A stretch of 32,000 nt of DNA from Candidatus Saccharimonadota bacterium (GTDB lineage Bacteria; Patescibacteriota; Saccharimonadia; Saccharimonadales; Saccharimonadaceae): positions 270,001-302,000 of the forward strand of contig DIRZ01000002.1 in assembly GCA_002421785.1 (NCBI GenBank), in the 5' to 3' direction. Made by a program: the position numbers and the translations under genes. A model generated the notes under the pieces. It worked only from the letters and a program-made list of their open reading frames with translations, did not search any database and was not told where the DNA came from. Below, piece by piece: positions 3,814 to 28,548 of this stretch. The first letter of the stretch is position 1. The number at the start of each line of letters is the position of its first letter.

Positions 3814-5235
3814 ATGGCAATGGGGAGCAAAAAACTAGGGATACTCGCCGCAACCGCGGGTTTTGTACTGATGGTGTTCGAAATTGCGGCAGCGCGGATA
3901 CTTGCCCCGAGCATTGGTAGCTCGACGTATGTGTGGACGAGCGTGATTGGGGTTATTATTATGGCACTGAGCGTGGGGTATTGGGCTGGTGGGCGAATTG
4001 CCGACAGGCGCAATAACCCAAATGACATCGCGCGGCTTTTTTTGGCACTTTCACTCACGATTACTTTTGCTATGATTATGTACCCGGGTTTCCTGTCTTC
4101 GGTCGCTGAGTGGACAATCGACGTACGATTCAGCGCCGTCATCGCATCGCTGGTGTTGTTTGCGCCAACAAGCTTGCTCGCAGGGGCGGTAAGTCCTTAC
4201 CTCGCCAAGTTAAATGTTCGCTCGCTCGCGTCGTCGGGAAGTGCGGTAGCAGACCTAGGGGCCCTGAACTCTCTGGGTGGTATTGCGGGCACGTTCCTGA
4301 CAGGCTTTGTATTGTTTGGCTTTATGGGCGTGCGTGACGTAATGGCGGTGCTTGCTATAGGCGCGCTCGTGGTTAGTTGGTGGGCTCGGGGAGGGCGAAA
4401 CCGCCGTGAAACCTTGTTGATGGTTGCGGCGCTGGTGCTAGCTATGCTTGCGTGGCCAGGTTCGGGGGTATTAGCAATCGACACACCGAGTGCGCACTAT
4501 ACCATCGAAGATGCGACACTAAGTAGTGGTCATACGGTGCGGACGCTCGCCACTGGCCCGGGTGGCAAGCAATCCGGCATTATTGTAGGTAGCCCGACGG
4601 AATTAGCCTTCTGGTATACGCGCGAGATTGCTACGGTCATCGACCTACAGCCAGCCAAGCAGCGCATTGCTGTGCTTGGCGGCGGCGCTTACACGCTGCC
4701 TGCGTATCTTGCCCAGAAGTACCCTGACTCACAGATTGACGCAGTCGAAATTGATCCCAAATTACTTCCCATTGCCCAGGAGTACTTTGAGTATAGCCCT
4801 GCGAAAAACGTGGGTCATATTGCGATGGATGCTCGAACGTTTATTAACGGCGTGAAGCTGCCCTACGATATTGTGGTGGTCGACGTGTTTGGCGACGACA
4901 GCATCCCCGAGAGCCTCATGACGGCAGAGTATGGGCGCGCGCTGAAGCGTGCGGTTACTCCCGGTGGTGTGGTTATCATTAACGCGATAGCTGGCACTGG
5001 GGGGACATGCCTCGAGCTGTTCCAGGCTGTGAGCCGCCCCTACCTCGATAATTTTGCGACCGGATATTATTTGCCACGTATCAACGACGGGGGTCGTTCA
5101 AACATCACCGCGGTATTCGGCTCTCACCCGAAGGTGCCGTCAAACTACATCCCCACAGGGCCCGCGACGGGGCCAATCTATACAGACGATTACAACCCCA
5201 CGATGCGTGTCCAGTTTGCGTGCGAGCGCCGTTAA
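3814..5235 (+). CDS. membrane-fused spermidine synthase-like (aminopropyl/methyltransferase fold) protein
   Basis: N-terminal half is a multi-TM domain. C-terminal half has VLGGGAYTLP...IDAVEIDP...VVDVF, typical of the SpeE-like Rossmann fold. Confidence 0.85.
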   Translation: MAMGSKKLGILAATAGFVLMVFEIAAARILAPSIGSSTYVWTSVIGVIIMALSVGYWAGGRIADRRNNPNDIARLFLALSLTITFAMIMYPGFLSSVAEWTIDVRFSAVIASLVLFAPTSLLAGAVSPYLAKLNVRSLASSGSAVADLGALNSLGGIAGTFLTGFVLFGFMGVRDVMAVLAIGALVVSWWARGGRNRRETLLMVAALVLAMLAWPGSGVLAIDTPSAHYTIEDATLSSGHTVRTLATGPGGKQSGIIVGSPTELAFWYTREIATVIDLQPAKQRIAVLGGGAYTLPAYLAQKYPDSQIDAVEIDPKLLPIAQEYFEYSPAKNVGHIAMDARTFINGVKLPYDIVVVDVFGDDSIPESLMTAEYGRALKRAVTPGGVVIINAIAGTGGTCLELFQAVSRPYLDNFATGYYLPRINDGGRSNITAVFGSHPKVPSNYIPTGPATGPIYTDDYNPTMRVQFACERR

Positions 5236-5320
5236 CGGAAGTTTATTTTTGTAGTAAATACTACAATAGGGGTCATGAAGTGTTAGAGCGGGCGTTGCCA
5301 AAAATACATGGTGAAAACGC

Positions 5321-5349
5321 TTGAAAATGCTATATATAGCGTTTATATT
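5321..5349 (+). promoter_or_regulatory. candidate nrdA promoter
   Basis: TTGAAA (5321-5326), 17-nt spacer, TATATT (5344-5349). The spacer is filled by NrdR-like box 1. Confidence 0.5.
5327..5342 (+). promoter_or_regulatory. NrdR-box-like palindrome 1
   Basis: ATGCTATATATAGCGT contains the perfect palindrome GCTATATATAGC. It resembles the NrdR box acaCwAtATaTwGtgt as I remember it. Confidence 0.55.
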
Positions 5350-5358
5350 TATAGACAG

Positions 5359-5374
5359 ACACTACATATGTAGT
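5359..5374 (+). promoter_or_regulatory. NrdR-box-like palindrome 2
   Basis: ACACTACATATGTAGT contains the palindrome CTACATATGTAG. It starts 32 nt after box 1, about three helical turns. Confidence 0.5.
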
Positions 5375-5515
5375 AGTTCAGCAAAATAGACACACACGCA
5401 AGGAAGTTGTAAAGCTAGCAGTCACCACTCTAGTGGCGGTTTTCTTGTGTAGCCTTTGGGAGGTGGTGTGTGTAAGCGAAGGTACTAACCATAACATATA
5501 AAAGGGATAGGGTAG

Positions 5516-7924
5516 ATGACGAATATCCAAGTCGTAAAACGCGACGGCACCCGTGAGCCGTTCGACGCCAACAAGATTAACCTGGCGCTCGTAAAGGCAA
5601 GCGAAGGCCTGCCAGATCAGATTCAAAAAGTAGTGCAGGTTGCTACCGAGCTACAATTAACGTTGTTTGATGGAATTACCACCGAAGAGCTTGATGAGGC
5701 GGTGATTCATACCGCGCTACAGAACGTAAAAGATGATCCAGATTTCGATACCATCGCTGCGCGCCTGTTGCTGAAGAACATATACAAAAATATCCTTGGT
5801 GACTATGCTGATGATGCTGAACTAAAAAAACTTCACACCAAAAAATTCCCTGAGTATTTGAAATTTGGGGTAAAGGAAGGCCTACTCGACAAAAGGATGG
5901 CGGACAGCAAACTGTTCGACCTGAAGAAACTTGCCGAAGCGCTCGACCCTAGCCGAGATGGACTGAGTAAATACCTGGGTGTTATTACGAACAAAAACCG
6001 CTACGCGCTCCGCAAGCAAAACGGTGACCCGATTGAAACGCCACAGTTCACTCATATGCGCATTGCAATGGGGTTGAGCTTCAACGAAAAAGACCCAACC
6101 GCTGCAGCACTCGACTTCTACCGACACATGAGCAACCTGGATTACTTGCCTGGCGGCAGTACTCGAGTTAACGCCGGTGGGTCATTCCCGCAACTTTCTA
6201 ACTGTTTTGTGATTGATGTCGAAGACGACATGGAAAGCATCGCAAAAAGCGTCCGCGACACTATGTGGATTGCTAAGGGTACAGGCGGTATTGGTATTAG
6301 CATGAACAAACTGCGCGCCGCAGGGAGTCCTGTTAAAACGACCAACACCGTCAGCACTGGACCGCTGCCATTTATGAAAATGATTGATACGGCACTCTTT
6401 GCCGTCAGCCGTAAGGGTAAAAAAGCAGGGGCAGCCGCCATTTATATGGAAAACTGGCACCTCAACTTCCCGCAGTTTATGGAACTTCGCCAAAACAGCG
6501 GTGACCCATACTTCCGCACTCGTTTTGCGAACATTGCCGTGTATATTAGCGATGAGTTTATGAAACGTGTTGCTAAGGAGCAAGATTGGTACATGTTCGA
6601 CCCAGCAGAAACCGCTGATTTGTCAGAACTCTACGGCGAAGCATTTAGTAAACGCTATGCAGAATATGTAAAACTAGCCGAAGCAGGAAAGCTCCGTGAA
6701 TTCAAAAAAGTGCCCGCTCGTCAGCAATGGCGACAGATTCTGACGACACTACAGGCAAGTAGTCACCCGTGGATTACCTGGAAAGACACCATTAATACCC
6801 GCGCGCTGAACAACAATACAAGCACCATCCACAGTAGCAACTTGTGTACTGAAATTACACTGCCAAATGATGCGAAAAACATCAGCGTGTGTAATCTCGT
6901 GAGCATCAACCTAAGCGCCTTCCTGGACATCGAAACGAAGCAGTGGGACTGGGACCGCCTAGAGTCCGCCAGCCGAAGTGCTATTCGCCAGCTCGATAAC
7001 CTTTGCGACGTGACTGATACGCCAATTCCAGAAGCTATCAATAGTATCCGCACCACTCGTGCACTCGGCCTCGGTATTATGGGCTTTACTGATGTCATCG
7101 AAAAGCTTGGGTACAGTTACGAAAGCGAAAGTGCCTACGATACGATGGATCAGTTGACGGAGTTTATTAGCTACTACGCTATTGACGAAAGCGCCGAGCT
7201 GGCTAAGGTAAAGGGAAGTTATCCAGATTTCAAGGGAAGTGGTTGGAGCAAAGGCTTGCTGCCAATCGACACCGTTGATTTGCTTGCCAAGGACCGTAAA
7301 GTCAAGGTCGACATGACCCGCAAGACTCGCCTGGACTGGGAAGCACTTCGTGCAAAGACTACTAAAGGCATGCGCAACGCAACCTTGATGGCAATCGCGC
7401 CAACCGCAAACATTGCACATGTTGCCGGTACGACCCCAGGTATTGATCCACAATTCGGCCAGATCTTCAGCCGCAGCACGCTGAACGGCAAATTCCTCGA
7501 AGTAAACGGTAATCTGGTTCGTGACCTTAAAAAACTGGGCCTTTGGGACGAAGTGAAGGAACAATTGCTTGTGGAGCAGGGCGACCTGACGAACATCGAT
7601 GTCATTCCACAGGCACTCAAGGATGTATACAAAACCTGCTTCCAGTTGTCGCCATTTGCGTTCATCGAAGTCGCCGGTCGCGCCCAAAAATGGGTCGACC
7701 AGGCAATTAGCCGCAATATGTACCTGGAAACCCGCAGCATTGATGACATGGAAAAAGTGTACATGGAAGCATGGAAGCGCGGCCTTAAGACTACCTACTA
7801 CTTGCACATGAAGCCACGTCACCAGGCCGAACAGAGCACGACTCGTGTAAACAAAGCCGAAACCGCCCCAGGCGGCGGCGCACGAAAAGCTGGATTTGGA
7901 TTCGCGAAGAAACAATCAGTATAA
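5516..7924 (+). CDS. nrdA: ribonucleoside-diphosphate reductase alpha subunit (class I) with one N-terminal ATP-cone
   Basis: ATP-cone VVKRDGTREPFDxxKI. Catalytic motifs LSNCFV, SNLCTEI, VCNLVSINL and the TTYYL tyrosine pair. No Cys in the last 36 aa. Confidence 0.95.
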   Translation: MTNIQVVKRDGTREPFDANKINLALVKASEGLPDQIQKVVQVATELQLTLFDGITTEELDEAVIHTALQNVKDDPDFDTIAARLLLKNIYKNILGDYADDAELKKLHTKKFPEYLKFGVKEGLLDKRMADSKLFDLKKLAEALDPSRDGLSKYLGVITNKNRYALRKQNGDPIETPQFTHMRIAMGLSFNEKDPTAAALDFYRHMSNLDYLPGGSTRVNAGGSFPQLSNCFVIDVEDDMESIAKSVRDTMWIAKGTGGIGISMNKLRAAGSPVKTTNTVSTGPLPFMKMIDTALFAVSRKGKKAGAAAIYMENWHLNFPQFMELRQNSGDPYFRTRFANIAVYISDEFMKRVAKEQDWYMFDPAETADLSELYGEAFSKRYAEYVKLAEAGKLREFKKVPARQQWRQILTTLQASSHPWITWKDTINTRALNNNTSTIHSSNLCTEITLPNDAKNISVCNLVSINLSAFLDIETKQWDWDRLESASRSAIRQLDNLCDVTDTPIPEAINSIRTTRALGLGIMGFTDVIEKLGYSYESESAYDTMDQLTEFISYYAIDESAELAKVKGSYPDFKGSGWSKGLLPIDTVDLLAKDRKVKVDMTRKTRLDWEALRAKTTKGMRNATLMAIAPTANIAHVAGTTPGIDPQFGQIFSRSTLNGKFLEVNGNLVRDLKKLGLWDEVKEQLLVEQGDLTNIDVIPQALKDVYKTCFQLSPFAFIEVAGRAQKWVDQAISRNMYLETRSIDDMEKVYMEAWKRGLKTTYYLHMKPRHQAEQSTTRVNKAETAPGGGARKAGFGFAKKQSV

Positions 7925-7936
7925 GGAGCTATGCAT

Positions 7937-8008
7937 ATGAATGAATCAAACAACTGTACCTGCACCTGCGACTGCTGCAAAGACTGCAAAAGCTGCACAA
8001 CAAAATAA
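7937..8008 (+). CDS. Cys-rich micro-ORF (23 aa from 7937; 25 aa if started at 7931)
   Basis: (MH)MNESNNCTCTCDCCKDCKSCTTK with 7 Cys. AAGGAG (7923-7928) lies 8 nt before the ATG at 7937. In frame with nrdA. Confidence 0.35.
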   Translation: MNESNNCTCTCDCCKDCKSCTTK

Positions 8009-8029
8009 CACAAGCAAAGGGAATCTACT

Positions 8030-8203
8030 ATGAATGCATCACAAATCATCAATGACGAAATGACACTCGAGGAAAAACTCCAGGCAATTAGCGACGCCAT
8101 GGAGCAAGCACAATCAACCGCCAACGAAGCAGCCGCCCGTCGCGGTGAAGTTGCGGCACCTATCGATCCTGCAGACCTAACTATGTGTGAGGGGTGCCAG
8201 TAG
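8030..8203 (+). CDS. 57-aa protein ending ...PADLTMCEGCQ (RNR-tail-like CxxC)
   Basis: ATG preceded by AAAGGGA. In frame with nrdA and the micro-ORF. Too short for the supplied ORF track. Confidence 0.5.
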   Translation: MNASQIINDEMTLEEKLQAISDAMEQAQSTANEAAARRGEVAAPIDPADLTMCEGCQ

Positions 8204-8448
8204 TGTCGGTCCGGATTGAATATACTCCAGGTAACAAGCCAACGACACGACAAATTCTGGATTCGTTGAATGCACAGCACCCAGACAAGGTGTTTACTGC
8301 TGGCCCCGGCAATGTAATTGTCGAATCGTACCGCGAGCCAACCGCGGAGCTTTCGCGCGCGGAAGCGCTCCAGGAGCAGGCTGATTTACGCGCGCTCCGT
8401 GAAGCAAAGGTTGGCTACGGCGCAACTGAAGCAGTGTTTACATTCTAG
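8203..8448 (+). CDS. hypothetical 81-aa protein (track start 8194)
   Basis: The GTG at 8203 overlaps the preceding TAG (TAGTG), suggesting translational coupling. No family recognised. Confidence 0.5.
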   Translation: MSVRIEYTPGNKPTTRQILDSLNAQHPDKVFTAGPGNVIVESYREPTAELSRAEALQEQADLRALREAKVGYGATEAVFTF

Positions 8449-8534
8449 TTTGTGCGATTTATTTCACACCGACTCGTCACGTAGCCGGCTAGAATGATAG
8501 TAGGAAAGACTAACTAATTTTTGAGGAGAATAGT

Positions 8535-9605
8535 ATGGGAAAGATTCTAGGCAGCGGTATTCAGGACGGGTTGCTCCTAAAACCAATTAATTATCAGTGG
8601 GCAATGGACTTGTATGACCAGGCTGTAGCGAATACATGGTTCCCCAACGAAATTCAGTTAGCTCAGGACCTTGCTGACTGGGAAAAAATGAGTGACGAAG
8701 AGCGCCACGCAGTGACATTCCTGATGAGCTATTTCAACCCAAATGAGCTCCTCGTGAACAAAGCCTTGGCGTTTGGTGTGTACCCGTATGTCAATGCAGC
8801 AGAAGCCCACCTATACCTTGCCAAGCAGATGTGGGAAGAAGCGAACCACTGTATGGCATTTGAGTATGTGCTCGAAACGTTCCCAATTGACCGCGACGTT
8901 GCGTATGCCGCACACGTCGACGAAGAAACCATGGCGAAAAAGGAAGCGTTTGAAACTAAGTACATCAAGCGGATGACTGAAGACACGATGGATATCACGA
9001 CGATTGATGGTAAAAAAGACTTCATTCGTAACTTGATTGCGTACAATATCATCCTCGAGGGCATCTGGTTCTATAGCGGCTTTATGGTAGCGTTGTCATT
9101 TAGGCAACGAAACCTGCTGCGTAACTTCGGAAGCCTGATCGACTGGGTTGTGCGCGACGAAAGCCTGCACCTGAAGTTTGGTATCAACCTGATTTTGACG
9201 GTGATCGAAGAAAACGAAGAGCTGCAAGATCCAGAATTTGCCGAAGAAATTAAACAAATGATTTTAGACGCCGTTGAGATGGAAGAAGAATACAACAAGG
9301 CGCTGTTGCCAAATGGTATTCTTGGCCTGAACGCCGACTATATCAACCAGTACGTCAAGTACCTGACCGACCGCCGCCTGGAAGAGCTTGGCTTTGAACC
9401 TCACTACAACGTGAGCAACCCTGCCAAGTGGATGGCGACAGCCAACGATACGTACGAGCTGGTGAACTTCTTTGAAAGCACCAACACAAGTTACGAAGTG
9501 AATGCCGGTAATGCCGAAAGTAAGCTACAAGGCATCGGCCCCGAAGAAGGGCAAAGCCCATCAGCTGACCGTGGCGAAAATGAAGTAACTGATAGCGAAA
9601 AGTAG
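8535..9605 (+). CDS. nrdB: ribonucleotide reductase beta subunit, class Ic-like (Phe at radical position)
   Basis: GAGGAG RBS. Ligand motifs NPNE71LLV, E102ANH105, ILEGIWF, RDESLH. F109 sits at H+4 where the Tyr radical normally is. C-terminal FFESTNTSYEV. Confidence 0.93.
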   Translation: MGKILGSGIQDGLLLKPINYQWAMDLYDQAVANTWFPNEIQLAQDLADWEKMSDEERHAVTFLMSYFNPNELLVNKALAFGVYPYVNAAEAHLYLAKQMWEEANHCMAFEYVLETFPIDRDVAYAAHVDEETMAKKEAFETKYIKRMTEDTMDITTIDGKKDFIRNLIAYNIILEGIWFYSGFMVALSFRQRNLLRNFGSLIDWVVRDESLHLKFGINLILTVIEENEELQDPEFAEEIKQMILDAVEMEEEYNKALLPNGILGLNADYINQYVKYLTDRRLEELGFEPHYNVSNPAKWMATANDTYELVNFFESTNTSYEVNAGNAESKLQGIGPEEGQSPSADRGENEVTDSEK

Positions 9606-9619
9606 GATTATCGTTATGT

Positions 9620-10480
9620 ATGGTGGTGGCGTTTAACGGGCTTCAGTAGCGGGCGATTCAGTCTAGTTTGCAAGCAGATGTCGACAATGCTAAGAAAAAA
9701 GTGATGCTGTATCAGGCCGAAAAAGGCACCTACCCAACGGCGATTAATTGTACAAATCCGAGTGATACTGAAATTTGCGTGGAGCCGTCAGGGTCGAATA
9801 CGTATACATATAGTGCGACGAACGCGACCAACCCGCCGCGCTTCGGTTTGACAGCGAGCAGCGGCACCACGACCTACCAGGCTACGCAGCGCACTTCGGC
9901 CGAGCAGCTGGCAGGCGTGGTAACCGATGGCTTGTCATTACATCTTGATGCGTCCAATAGCGCTTCCTATTCGGGCACGGGTACGCTATGGAGCGATATT
10001 TCTGGTACTGGCCGCAATGCGACGCTGACAAATGTTTCATACGGTAACGAACACGGCGGCGTGCTCGTATTTAACGGCACAAGTTCGTATGCACGAGTTG
10101 CGAGTGGCGCAACGCAGTCCGTGTTTATGATGGTCTACATTGACCCGAGCCAAGTCACTTCACGTTACCTGCTGGACTCGCGTACGGGTAATTCCGCGGG
10201 GTATATCTACAACAACGGCGTGGGCAACTGGCTAAACTTTTATGCGGATGCCCAGCCTGTTGCTACGAACTGGGCGAGCATACCTAAGGGTAGGTGGGTA
10301 GGCTTTTATACCAACACAACCCTGCAGTATACCTCGACTGTTAATGTCATGAGCCGCTACAGTAATGGCGAATTGCTGATGGGCAAGCTGGGCGTCGTGC
10401 TGGTGTATAACCGAGCTCTGTCACAGGCGGAAATTTTGCAGAACTTCAACGCGTTCAGTGTTCGCTACGGAGTGCTCTAG
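9620..10480 (+). pseudogene. 5'-truncated type IV pilin-like / LamG (laminin-G_3) domain gene with an in-frame TAG
   Basis: Reads MVVAFNGLQ-TAG(9647-9649)-RAIQSSLQADVDNAKKKVMLYQAEKGTYP, then a LamG-like body (LHLDASN...GTGRNATL...LVYNRALSQAEILQNF). The prepilin leader and first half of helix alpha1 are absent. Confidence 0.65.
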
Positions 10481-13209: not shown

Positions 13210-13791
13210 CTAGTGCCATACGGTGACGGCGCAACCAGTCGTGTTCTGGCTTGCCATGTACTGGGTTACTATGCCCGACCCCATGTTTGTGCATGTTTGA
13301 TTGCCAGGCAGAAGATAAACAATTGAATACCATGTTGGATCTAGGTTTGAAAAAGCGATACCGCGTTGACTTAGGTTTCCACCACCCCACCATAACGTTT
13401 TTGGTTGCAGCGGAACGTTACTTCGCAAGGTTGAGCCGTATCGGCTGATCCTTGAATTTAGTTCGTTGTCTGCACTTCCGAACAAGGTTAAATCTGTAGC
13501 ATTTTTTCTACATTGACCCGCAGCAAACCCATCGGCAGCCGGGTAGTCTTCCAGTGTGCCGAGACAAATTGCCGCATAGGAATACGCCACGACTGGGTAG
13601 CGACCGAACTCTGAATAATGCATCTCGAGTGCTTTCATGTATGTTTTAACAACAGATTCGGTCCGCACCTTTTCGGCGCGACCCTGGATGCCACCATAAG
13701 AAACAACGGTTATTGAGGCGAGTATTGCGACAAGTACGATGATAATAAGTAGCTCTATGATTGTGAAGCCATGCCGTCCATTCCTGGTCAT
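13210..13791 (-). CDS. type IV pilin-like protein (prepilin N-terminal cleavage/methylation domain)
   Basis: MTRNGRHG|FTIIELLIIIVLVAILASITVVSYGG. Confidence 0.9.
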   Translation of the reverse strand: MTRNGRHGFTIIELLIIIVLVAILASITVVSYGGIQGRAEKVRTESVVKTYMKALEMHYSEFGRYPVVAYSYAAICLGTLEDYPAADGFAAGQCRKNATDLTLFGSADNELNSRISRYGSTLRSNVPLQPKTLWWGGGNLSQRGIAFSNLDPTWYSIVYLLPGNQTCTNMGSGIVTQYMASQNTTGCAVTVWH

Positions 13792-27511: not shown

Positions 27512-28048
27512 ATGAAAAGGCGGGCACAAAAACAGACAGGTTTTACGATTGTAGAGCTATTGATTGTCATTGTGGTGATTGCTATTTTGGCGACTGTTAC
27601 CGTGGTAGCATTTAATGGCACGCAGCAGCGAGCACGTTTGTCAAAAATTGATAGTGATATGCGAAGCCTGAATCAAGCCATAACGATGGCTCGGATAAAT
27701 CAGGGTGGAGTTGCGCTACGATATGTAACGGGGTCTACTGCAACGGGCTCGATATGCTGGGGTAAGGCTTCGGGGACCAATTTAGCAACGCTGCTGCTCA
27801 CGGATGGGTGCTGGACATCGTATGTGAGTGCTCTTAATGCCATCAGCAATGCGAGCGGCGTGAATGTTCGGGGCCTTGTTGATCCGTGGGGCCGTCCCTA
27901 CTATATTGACGAGAACGAAGGTGAGGGTGCAGACCCGCCTAATGCGTGTGGAGATGACTGGATTGGCTACTACTCGAACCCATTCACAACTGGGCAGACA
28001 ATGACAAAACATACCACCGTAAGGAATATTCAGCCCGCATGTATCTAG
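27512..28048 (+). CDS. type IV pilin-like protein
   Basis: MKRRAQKQTG|FTIVELLIVIVVIAILATVTVVAFNG. Confidence 0.9.
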   Translation: MKRRAQKQTGFTIVELLIVIVVIAILATVTVVAFNGTQQRARLSKIDSDMRSLNQAITMARINQGGVALRYVTGSTATGSICWGKASGTNLATLLLTDGCWTSYVSALNAISNASGVNVRGLVDPWGRPYYIDENEGEGADPPNACGDDWIGYYSNPFTTGQTMTKHTTVRNIQPACI

Positions 28049-28548
28049 TGTTGCCGCATAAACAGAATTCTCGCCAAGGCTTTACTATCGTCGAGCTACT
28101 GATTGTCATCGTTATTATTGCGGTGTTAGCAACGGTGACGGTGGTGGCGTATAACGGCATGCAATCCCGAGCGCAATTTACGCGGCTGAGTAGTGAGCTG
28201 GGCCTTATTAACAAAGCACTTGCGCTCTATCACGCCGAAAATGGTGCCTACCCAGTGACGGGAACATTTGGCGCACCAGGATGGCGTTACTCGTGCGCAA
28301 CAGGAATCGCCAACTTTATTACGGGAATTAGTACCCATATTAATACGCCTCCGCAGGCTCCTTGCAATGGTGGTGCAACGAATAATGATACATGGCTCTA
28401 TGCTTCTGATGGAGCGGGGTATAAGTTGCTTCACATACGACCAAGTGCGTCATTGTCGGGCCAGCCGCCTGCGGCAATGCGTGATACGCGCTATACGGCT
28501 GCGTCACCCTCATGGGGTTATTGGACACCGAGCTGGGCTGCGCAGTAG
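28039..28548 (+). CDS. type IV pilin-like protein
   Basis: ...NSRQG|FTIVELLIVIVIIAVLATVTVVAYNG. Overlaps the upstream pilin gene by 10 nt. Confidence 0.9.
   Translation: MYLVLPHKQNSRQGFTIVELLIVIVIIAVLATVTVVAYNGMQSRAQFTRLSSELGLINKALALYHAENGAYPVTGTFGAPGWRYSCATGIANFITGISTHINTPPQAPCNGGATNNDTWLYASDGAGYKLLHIRPSASLSGQPPAAMRDTRYTAASPSWGYWTPSWAAQ

Follow-up and report, generated by a model that had tools for sequence, protein, structure and literature searches.

It is stated in the literature that all class I ribonucleotide reductases (RNRs) carry a redox cysteine pair on the catalytic subunit, NrdA (PMC6187632). A stretch of 32,000 nucleotides (nt) from a genome of Candidatus Saccharibacteria (TM7), referred to here as the window, raises the question of how such an enzyme is re-reduced when this pair is missing. 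The nrdA gene of the window ends without the two cysteines and is followed, before nrdB, by a small open reading frame (ORF) for a protein of 57 amino acids (aa) which closes with CEGCQ. This arrangement, with two TAA codons between the two reading frames, had been described in an earlier reading of the DNA (the original prediction), and all its coordinates are exact in the sequence. It is proposed here, with a probability of about 0.8 and on the grounds of sequence comparison, that the small gene encodes the redox-shuttle tail of a class I RNR as a separate polypeptide, provisionally named the tail peptide. Supply of the tail in trans, one of the explanations offered by the original prediction, is supported because the small gene is conserved and syntenic, because its C-terminus resembles known tails and because fused and detached tails show strict phyletic complementarity.

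The catalytic subunit and its missing tail

Pfam matches in NrdA (ATP-cone, Ribonuc_red_lgN and Ribonuc_red_lgC) correspond to the ATP-cone, the all-alpha and the barrel domains. The protein passes NF005101, the NCBIfam equivalog model of the class I alpha subunit, with 1283.8 bits, the match ending at position 788 of the 822 of the profile, and its score with the NrdJ model TIGR02504 stays under the cut-off. The catalytic residues had been said to be kept, and indeed the catalytic cysteines of the Pseudomonas aeruginosa (5IM3) and human R1 proteins have their aligned counterparts in the segments LSNCFV, SNLCTEI and VCNLVS. Five cysteines are present in NrdA (230, 444, 459, 497 and 708), the first of which we take to be the equivalent of Escherichia coli C225. 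The protein ends in ...GFGFAKKQSV before TAA(7922), and its end is free of cysteine as the original prediction had noticed for the last 36 residues, although the cysteine-free stretch is really 94 residues long. The active-site cysteines are retained and therefore a disulfide must form at every turnover, yet no C-terminal pair is available for its reduction.

The missing tail is a trait of the clade and not the result of a local accident or damage. All of the 120 closest NrdA orthologs (87-100% identity, from independent assemblies) have 799-805 aa and a cysteine-free C-terminus with the conserved end ...G-F-G-F-A-K-K-x-x, and the named orthologs all belong to Saccharibacteria. The pattern G-F-[GA]-F is kept in all tail-less clades, including relatives with 59-62% and 75% identity, and is absent from tail-bearing relatives; the GFGFAKK motif may be a docking site for the 57-aa protein. 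As evidence against itself, the original prediction had named orthologs in which NrdA of this clade normally ends without cysteine and the downstream ORFs are not conserved. The first part holds true, yet the 57-aa ORF is conserved, and it is never contiguous with NrdA.

A conserved small gene

Purifying selection acts on the 57-aa ORF, which is a real gene. Its product has 868 homologs, nearly all of exactly 57 aa, and the very protein of the window was found on 215 contigs. When 61 copies were aligned by codons, the differing codons were divided into 35196 synonymous and 31454 nonsynonymous ones in frame, as against about 5000 and 64000 in the shifted frames, and third-position changes dominated. 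An exhaustive HMMER search of 1.84 billion representative sequences with the family profile yielded 119 clusters (at 50% identity) with proteins of 34-144 aa, mostly 50-80 aa, save three long unrelated proteins without an RNR motif; no fusion of the family to an RNR was found among these clusters. The 57-aa protein has no Pfam or NCBIfam match, PHROGs gave only a weak match, on the helix, to a family of unknown function, and in sequence searches of PDB neither the family profile nor the 22-residue tail by itself retrieved anything beyond coiled-coil noise. In public databases the small protein is labelled as hypothetical or bears a spurious name.

Three parts can be distinguished in the family. 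The N-terminal one is amphipathic (M-[TS]-L-[ED]-E-K-L-x-A-I-[DS]), and a linker of variable make-up connects it with the segment P-[ILV]-D-P-x-x-L-x-x-C-x-G-C-[QE]-stop at the extreme C-terminus. The residues L13, K16, L17, A19, I20 and A23 of the helix region are invariant, and so are C53, G55 and C56 across the family. AlphaFold2, supplied with the family alignment, predicts a single helix of residues 13-37 with a predicted local distance difference test (pLDDT) score of about 80-86, and a tail with a pLDDT of about 50; the modelled helix might serve as the element which docks on NrdA. The window protein ends in ...TMCEGCQ before TAG(8201), and both its cysteines belong to the final ~10 residues of a C-terminus which is flexible, as is typical of an RNR tail. 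It is not a covalent part of NrdA, being encoded by a separate ORF with its own Shine-Dalgarno sequence. Every copy of the gene has such a sequence, which at other loci is of the GGGGG or AGGGG type and lies at the same distance from the small gene as in the window.

Synteny was followed in 80 loci from Saccharibacteria genomes with NrdA proteins 77-95% identical. The small gene stands beside the tail-less nrdA in 77 of them: 75 have it in the interval from nrdA to nrdB, and two have it behind nrdB. The remaining three are either truncated at a contig end or rearranged. Two divergent cellular loci (L087 and L135, with an NrdA identity of 75-76%) have the gene as well.

Likeness to fused tails

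The C-terminus of the 57-aa protein, ...PIDPADLTMCEGCQ, mirrors the fused tails of 25 tail-bearing relatives of NrdA, 12 of which come from plasmids or phages and 13 from IMG/VR phages. All 25 end in C-x-x-C plus one or two residues, mostly as CE[AS]CQ-stop and more rarely as CQACQ, CEMCGA, CLMCGS or CESCHG. Ten of the twelve plasmid and phage proteins (32-45% identity) close with C-[EQ]-[AS]-C-Q-stop, for example that of P. aeruginosa (...ACSIDNPDCEACQ), and endings of the same type are found in the IMG/VR phage relatives (for example ...CSIEAMKNGGICESCQ), one of which has ...CESCHG. The family member P0331 (...ACPIDPAERALCEACQ) forms a bridge between the 57-aa family and the P. aeruginosa tail.

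Comparison of the family with NrdA C-terminal extensions by hhalign gave a probability of 73% and P = 3e-5, in end-to-end register. When the last 20 residues of the small protein were grafted onto the C-terminus of NrdA, the score with the Pseudomonas-type model NF005544 rose from 86.6 to 91.1 bits and the match reached position 965 of 965, whereas shuffled, Cys-to-Ser and reversed control grafts gave 86.7-87.9 bits and stopped at 935-939. The local alignment of the chimera of NrdA and tail against PDB did not extend into the tail of 5IM3.

Complementarity of fused and detached tails

No fused cysteine tail occurs in the 86 loci with tail-less NrdA, and a stand-alone ORF of the type 'DP...CxxC[QES]-stop' is present in 82 of them. 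In the 75 loci (569 kb) with tail-bearing NrdA, a fused tail was detected in 60 and a stand-alone ORF in none. The tail-less set includes the divergent cellular loci mentioned above and a second clade with NrdA at 59-62% identity (L137-139, refetched as L197-199). The tail peptides of this second clade have only 28-35 aa (a minimal example being MSTSTTTSFSSSVDVVDGIVCPVDPMELLNCESCQ), possess their own Shine-Dalgarno sequences and are encoded 0.1-1 kb upstream of nrdA, at about 8800-10000 of the refetched loci, where nrdB directly follows nrdA. One of these tail-less NrdA proteins is 1120 aa long and likely carries an intein, and in two of the loci a 315-321-aa ORF without a Pfam match is inserted between the peptide gene and nrdA. 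The contigs are probably actinophage because they encode WhiB, a judgement drawn from the known distribution of this protein.

On an Acinetobacter baumannii plasmid (L086, 3864-3998) a 44-aa ORF annotated as 'preprotein translocase subunit YajC' is situated between a tail-bearing nrdA and nrdB; this label is probably a mis-annotation.

Phage copies and linkage to redoxins

Homologs of the tail gene are carried by 33 IMG/VR viral contigs (L102-L134) with no nrdA or nrdB within 6 kb. A gene of an NrdH-family redoxin abuts the tail gene in 11 of them. In eight (L119-126) an 81-aa NrdH with CVQC and WSGFRPD motifs overlaps the stop of the tail gene and scores 88.8 bits with TIGR02194, the cut-off being 85.75, and in three more the neighbour is a glutaredoxin-like relative of YruB/NrdH. 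The same kind of gene is found in a phage-like metagenome group (L093-95) with matches to RusA, phage lysozyme and Acb2/Tad1. A second tail peptide stands in tandem in two viral contigs (L109 and L114). At one host locus (L074) nrdA is immediately preceded by a glutaredoxin-like gene. In the phages the tail gene often forms an operon with the gene of its redoxin neighbour, and several of the phages with a tail gene come from human-microbiome samples.

A scan of viral contigs for close relatives of NrdA gave no match, and an alignment-based scan did give relatives. The viral contigs from the latter showed no overlap with those carrying the small gene, in a scan which would miss divergent RNRs.

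Proposed mechanism

The following sequence of events can be suggested. Cys230 and Cys459 of NrdA would be oxidised to a disulfide at each turnover, for the re-reduction of which the protein offers no C-terminal cysteine pair of its own. The N-terminal amphipathic helix of the small protein would dock on NrdA, possibly at GFGFAKK, and the flexible linker would bring the C-terminal C-x-G-C-[Q/E] into the active site. There the dithiol of C53 and C56 could reduce the C230-C459 disulfide in trans by thiol-disulfide exchange and leave in the oxidised state. The oxidised peptide would in turn be re-reduced by an NrdH- or glutaredoxin-like redoxin or by thioredoxin, whichever is the reductant, with reduced nicotinamide adenine dinucleotide phosphate (NADPH) as the ultimate donor. 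Indirect support for such an exchange comes from the NrdH-family genes which adjoin the tail gene in 11 of the 33 viral loci and from the glutaredoxin-like one near nrdA in L074.

Judging from the sequences, it is rather likely, if less so than the assignment of the small gene itself, that this would be the first class I RNR lineage with a free, diffusible electron-shuttling tail, spread across Saccharibacteria and present in a minimal form in probable actinophages. Phages would then carry the peptide as an auxiliary gene, often together with NrdH, and supply the reductive half-reaction to the host RNR, thereby boosting the synthesis of deoxynucleoside triphosphates during infection.

The radical-generating subunit and other features of the locus

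The features of the locus are collected in Table 1. The promoter-like site upstream of nrdA is the only one on the + strand within 5200-9800 by a consensus scan, and no + strand terminator was found between nrdA and nrdB; these observations are weakly consistent with a single operon. An Rfam scan of 5000-9800 detected no RNA element.

Table 1. Features of the nrdA-nrdB locus in the window
Feature	Position	Strand	Basis
Promoter-like site TTGAAA-17-TATATT upstream of nrdA	5321..5349	+	Consensus scan, 10/12 matches
nrdA, class I RNR catalytic subunit, 802 aa, one ATP-cone, without C-terminal Cys pair	5516..7924	+	Pfam and NCBIfam
Cys230, active-site redox cysteine	6203..6205	+	Aligned with Cys of 'PQLSSC' in human and P. 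aeruginosa R1
Cys444, thiyl-radical cysteine in SNLCTEI	6845..6847	+	Motif identical in P. aeruginosa and human R1
Cys459, second active-site redox cysteine (VCNLVS)	6890..6892	+	Aligned with AVCNL[GA]S of P. aeruginosa and human R1
GFGFAKK motif at C-terminus of tail-less NrdA	7892..7912	+	Conservation
Cys-rich 25-aa mini-ORF (MHMNESNNCTCTCDCCKDCKSCTTK), ends TAA(8006)	7931..8008	+	ORF read, motif recurrence
Shine-Dalgarno-like AAGGGA, 7 nt upstream of the 57-aa gene	8017..8022	+	Sequence read
57-aa gene, candidate stand-alone RNR redox-tail protein ('tail peptide')	8030..8203	+	Homologs, synteny, coding signal
Predicted amphipathic helix, residues 13-37	8066..8140	+	AlphaFold2 with family alignment
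Putative flexible redox tail P-I-D-P-A-D-L-T-M-C53-E-G-C56-Q-stop	8159..8200	+	Invariant Cys, low pLDDT, likeness to fused tails
84-aa ORF, GTG start, overlaps stop of 57-aa gene	8194..8448	+	ORF call, no family match
nrdB, radical-generating subunit, class Ic-like	8535..9605	+	Pfam Ribonuc_red_sm

The best PDB matches of NrdB are the R2c proteins of Chlamydia trachomatis (1SYY/4D8F). In the alignment with 1SYY, EEANHCMAF stands against EEAVHTHTF and NPNELLV against STAESLV, so that a Phe coincides with Ct-F127, where the radical Tyr is replaced, and a Glu with Ct-E89, where the first Asp ligand is replaced. By this comparison NrdB is class Ic-like, which implies a Mn/Fe cofactor.

The 84-aa ORF between the small gene and nrdB has no match in Pfam, NCBIfam or PHROGs, and its sole partial match (54%) is in one other locus (L003). 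At the nucleotide level, the spacer in which it lies (8204-8534) matches none of the other loci, not even where NrdA is 95% identical. The length of this spacer is bimodal across the loci (8-110 nt or 190-520 nt), and in about 30 loci the long form contains unrelated, mostly acidic ORFs of 66-140 aa which belong to several small families. The 84-aa ORF is probably a gene of this hypervariable slot and stands outside the tail system.

The cysteine-rich mini-ORF after nrdA is a separate, real element, position-specific in its occurrence but patchy, and no part of the tail. A Shine-Dalgarno sequence AAGGAG at 7923-7928 is better spaced for an ATG at 7937 than for the start at 7931. The motif C.C.C.{0,3}CC occurs eight times in the six-frame translation of 777 kb, and seven of these, all on the + strand, fall into the interval which separates nrdA from the small gene. 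In about 8 of 78 loci, one variant form included, the stop of nrdA is directly followed by a mini-ORF of the C-x-C-x-C-x-C-C-K type with 12-26 aa; besides the window these loci are L006 and L020 (both ~6421), L053 (~6429), L065, L066 and L068 (~6415) and L078 (~6409). The element is absent from the closest relatives and is never fused. By analogy it may be a cysteine-responsive leader or attenuator, or else a thiol- or metal-binding peptide. Polycysteine short ORFs have been described as cysteine-responsive attenuators in mycobacteria (bioRxiv 10.1101/834739). Like these, the mini-ORF is very short, packed with Cys codons and situated in an operon upstream of other genes; unlike them, it is internal to the operon, has a Shine-Dalgarno sequence instead of being leaderless and recurs in only the few loci listed above.

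Some further observations concern the surroundings. The gene of glucose-6-phosphate dehydrogenase, a source of NADPH, is located 0.1-3 kb downstream of nrdB in 35 of the 80 loci (for example L045, 6496-7782) and does not occur in the window. In L045, L072 and L090-92 the tail-peptide gene adjoins one for a PNPOx-like flavoprotein, which in L079 is found behind nrdB. In the window, nrdB is directly followed by a 270-aa ORF with no Pfam match, and a prokaryotic N-terminal methylation (type IV pilin-like) motif is present in the ORFs at 9668-10480, 13210-13791 and 27512-28548.

Alternative explanations

The original prediction had also considered that a low level of readthrough at the two TAA codons might join the tail to NrdA, and that the enzyme might be in decay. 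Readthrough was suggested by the single frame which in the window is common to nrdA, the mini-ORF and the 57-aa ORF (7931-5516 = 2415 and 8030-5516 = 2514, both divisible by 3). This shared frame is a coincidence of the present genome, because across 78 loci the frame of the small gene relative to nrdA is random (30, 24 and 24 loci for frames 0, 1 and 2), and neither it nor the pair of TAA codons is a meaningful feature. In these loci the two genes are 3-181 nt apart, with as many as six in-frame stops between them, the small gene starts with its own ATG behind its own Shine-Dalgarno sequence, and it is placed after nrdB in two loci and upstream of nrdA in three. As a conserved mechanism, readthrough was rejected on these grounds and has hardly any probability left. 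The same has to be said of a decaying or truncated nrdA and of stops produced by sequencing or assembly errors, for which nothing speaks beyond the missing tail: the architecture is repeated in at least 120 orthologs from independent assemblies, the exact small protein recurs on its 215 contigs, the catalytic motifs are intact, and the small gene is under purifying selection.

Two further readings accept the small protein as real and give it another task. It could be a general thiol-redox peptide, or a regulator or inhibitor of RNR which mimics the tail, as Sml1 competes with the C-terminal domain of R1 in yeast, and NrdA would then be re-reduced directly by a redoxin. The phage copies without RNR nearby, the cellular copies not adjacent to RNR genes and the adjoining NrdH genes would fit such a role, which is nevertheless judged improbable. 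An accessory essential to catalysis is the better reading of a gene which stands between the two subunit genes in 75 of 80 loci and is strictly complementary to fused tails, and mere inhibition would not require that a redox-competent CxGC be invariant at the very C-terminus. Slightly less probable still is a factor of metal handling or cofactor assembly which serves the Mn/Fe site of NrdB instead of reducing NrdA. CxxC motifs can bind metals, NrdB is class Ic-like, and some copies of the gene are near those of ZnuA/ABC metal uptake, a Zip transporter or Fe/Mn superoxide dismutase; however, two cysteines alone make a weak metal site, the C-terminus copies the redox tail of NrdA, the peptide is present exactly where this tail is missing and absent where it is present, and its phage copies accompany NrdH, nrdB being absent within 6 kb.

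Several points weigh against a tail acting in trans. The match to fused tails spans only about 12-14 residues, the hhalign probability is 73% and not above 95%, and the gain from the graft is 4.5 bits; the closest curated model, NF005101, did not tell the real graft (165.8 bits) from the shuffled one (166.1 bits). An ancestral form with a fused tail was not found in the clade, so that the direction of the fission is one which we infer; two DNA-pattern scans of metagenomes, aimed at fused tails among members of the W[KR]RGLKTTYYLH clade, found none, with limited sensitivity (1/12 and 5/12 of the controls recovered). There is no redoxin gene among the window ORFs scanned, the phage copies have no RNR in their vicinity, and a few homologs lie away from RNR genes, beside those of PNPOx, Zip transporter and superoxide dismutase. 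A broader thiol or metal role of the tail peptide is still conceivable.

Significance

The rule that the cysteine pair of class I enzymes resides on NrdA would be broken by a tail-less NrdA with a detached peptide. In the literature searched, with subscription journals outside its scope, no report of a detached class I tail was found, and a split was described only for the class II pair NrdJa/NrdJb. Before tail-less class I sequences are called broken or reduced by small molecules, a neighbouring mini-ORF should be looked for. A separate tail of 28-57 residues would be a component which can be titrated and synthesised for studies of docking, entry into the active site and redoxin specificity, which are hard to perform with fused disordered tails. 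A function could also be assigned to a very widespread gene of the Candidate Phyla Radiation, now labelled 'hypothetical' or mis-named, and phages may supply just the electron-delivery module (tail peptide and NrdH) for a host enzyme, which suggests a new kind of auxiliary gene.

Comparison with known systems

The tail peptide resembles the fused tail of class I NrdA/R1 in the cysteine pair at the extreme C-terminus of a flexible segment, in its nearly identical ending (C-[ED]-[GA]-C-[QE]-stop as compared with CE[AS]CQ-stop of related NrdA proteins) and in the linkage to the NrdH family. Unlike the fused tail, it is a separate product with its own ribosome-binding site and, in Saccharibacteria, with an added N-terminal helix.

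NrdH-redoxins and glutaredoxins are small CxxC proteins encoded in or near RNR operons which serve the reduction of RNR, and in Facklamia ignava a glutaredoxin domain is fused to NrdB (PMC6187632). The tail peptide is likewise a small CxxC protein encoded with RNR genes. It differs in having no thioredoxin fold (there is no match to TIGR02194 or PF00462, and a single helix is predicted), in the position of its CxxC, which is at the extreme C-terminus and not at the start of helix 1, and in that it co-occurs with NrdH and does not replace it.

In the split class II RNR of P. aeruginosa, NrdJa/NrdJb, the small chain, encoded by an adjacent gene, mediates thiol-disulfide exchange through its C-terminal cysteines (PMC4520616), and NrdJb has folded IscU-like and zinc-finger domains (Burnim et al.). 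Here too the catalytic chain is devoid of the redox cysteines of the tail and an adjacent gene would supply them. Unlike the adenosylcobalamin-dependent class II enzyme, the present one is class I and Ic-like with nrdB in its operon, and in place of the folded domains of NrdJb there is a peptide of 28-77 aa with at most one helix, the window copy having 57 aa, two cysteines and no Pfam domain. On the sequence evidence, the tail peptide would work like the NrdA tail and like NrdJb but is a member of neither as they are defined, and its closest analogue is the split class II system NrdJa/NrdJb.

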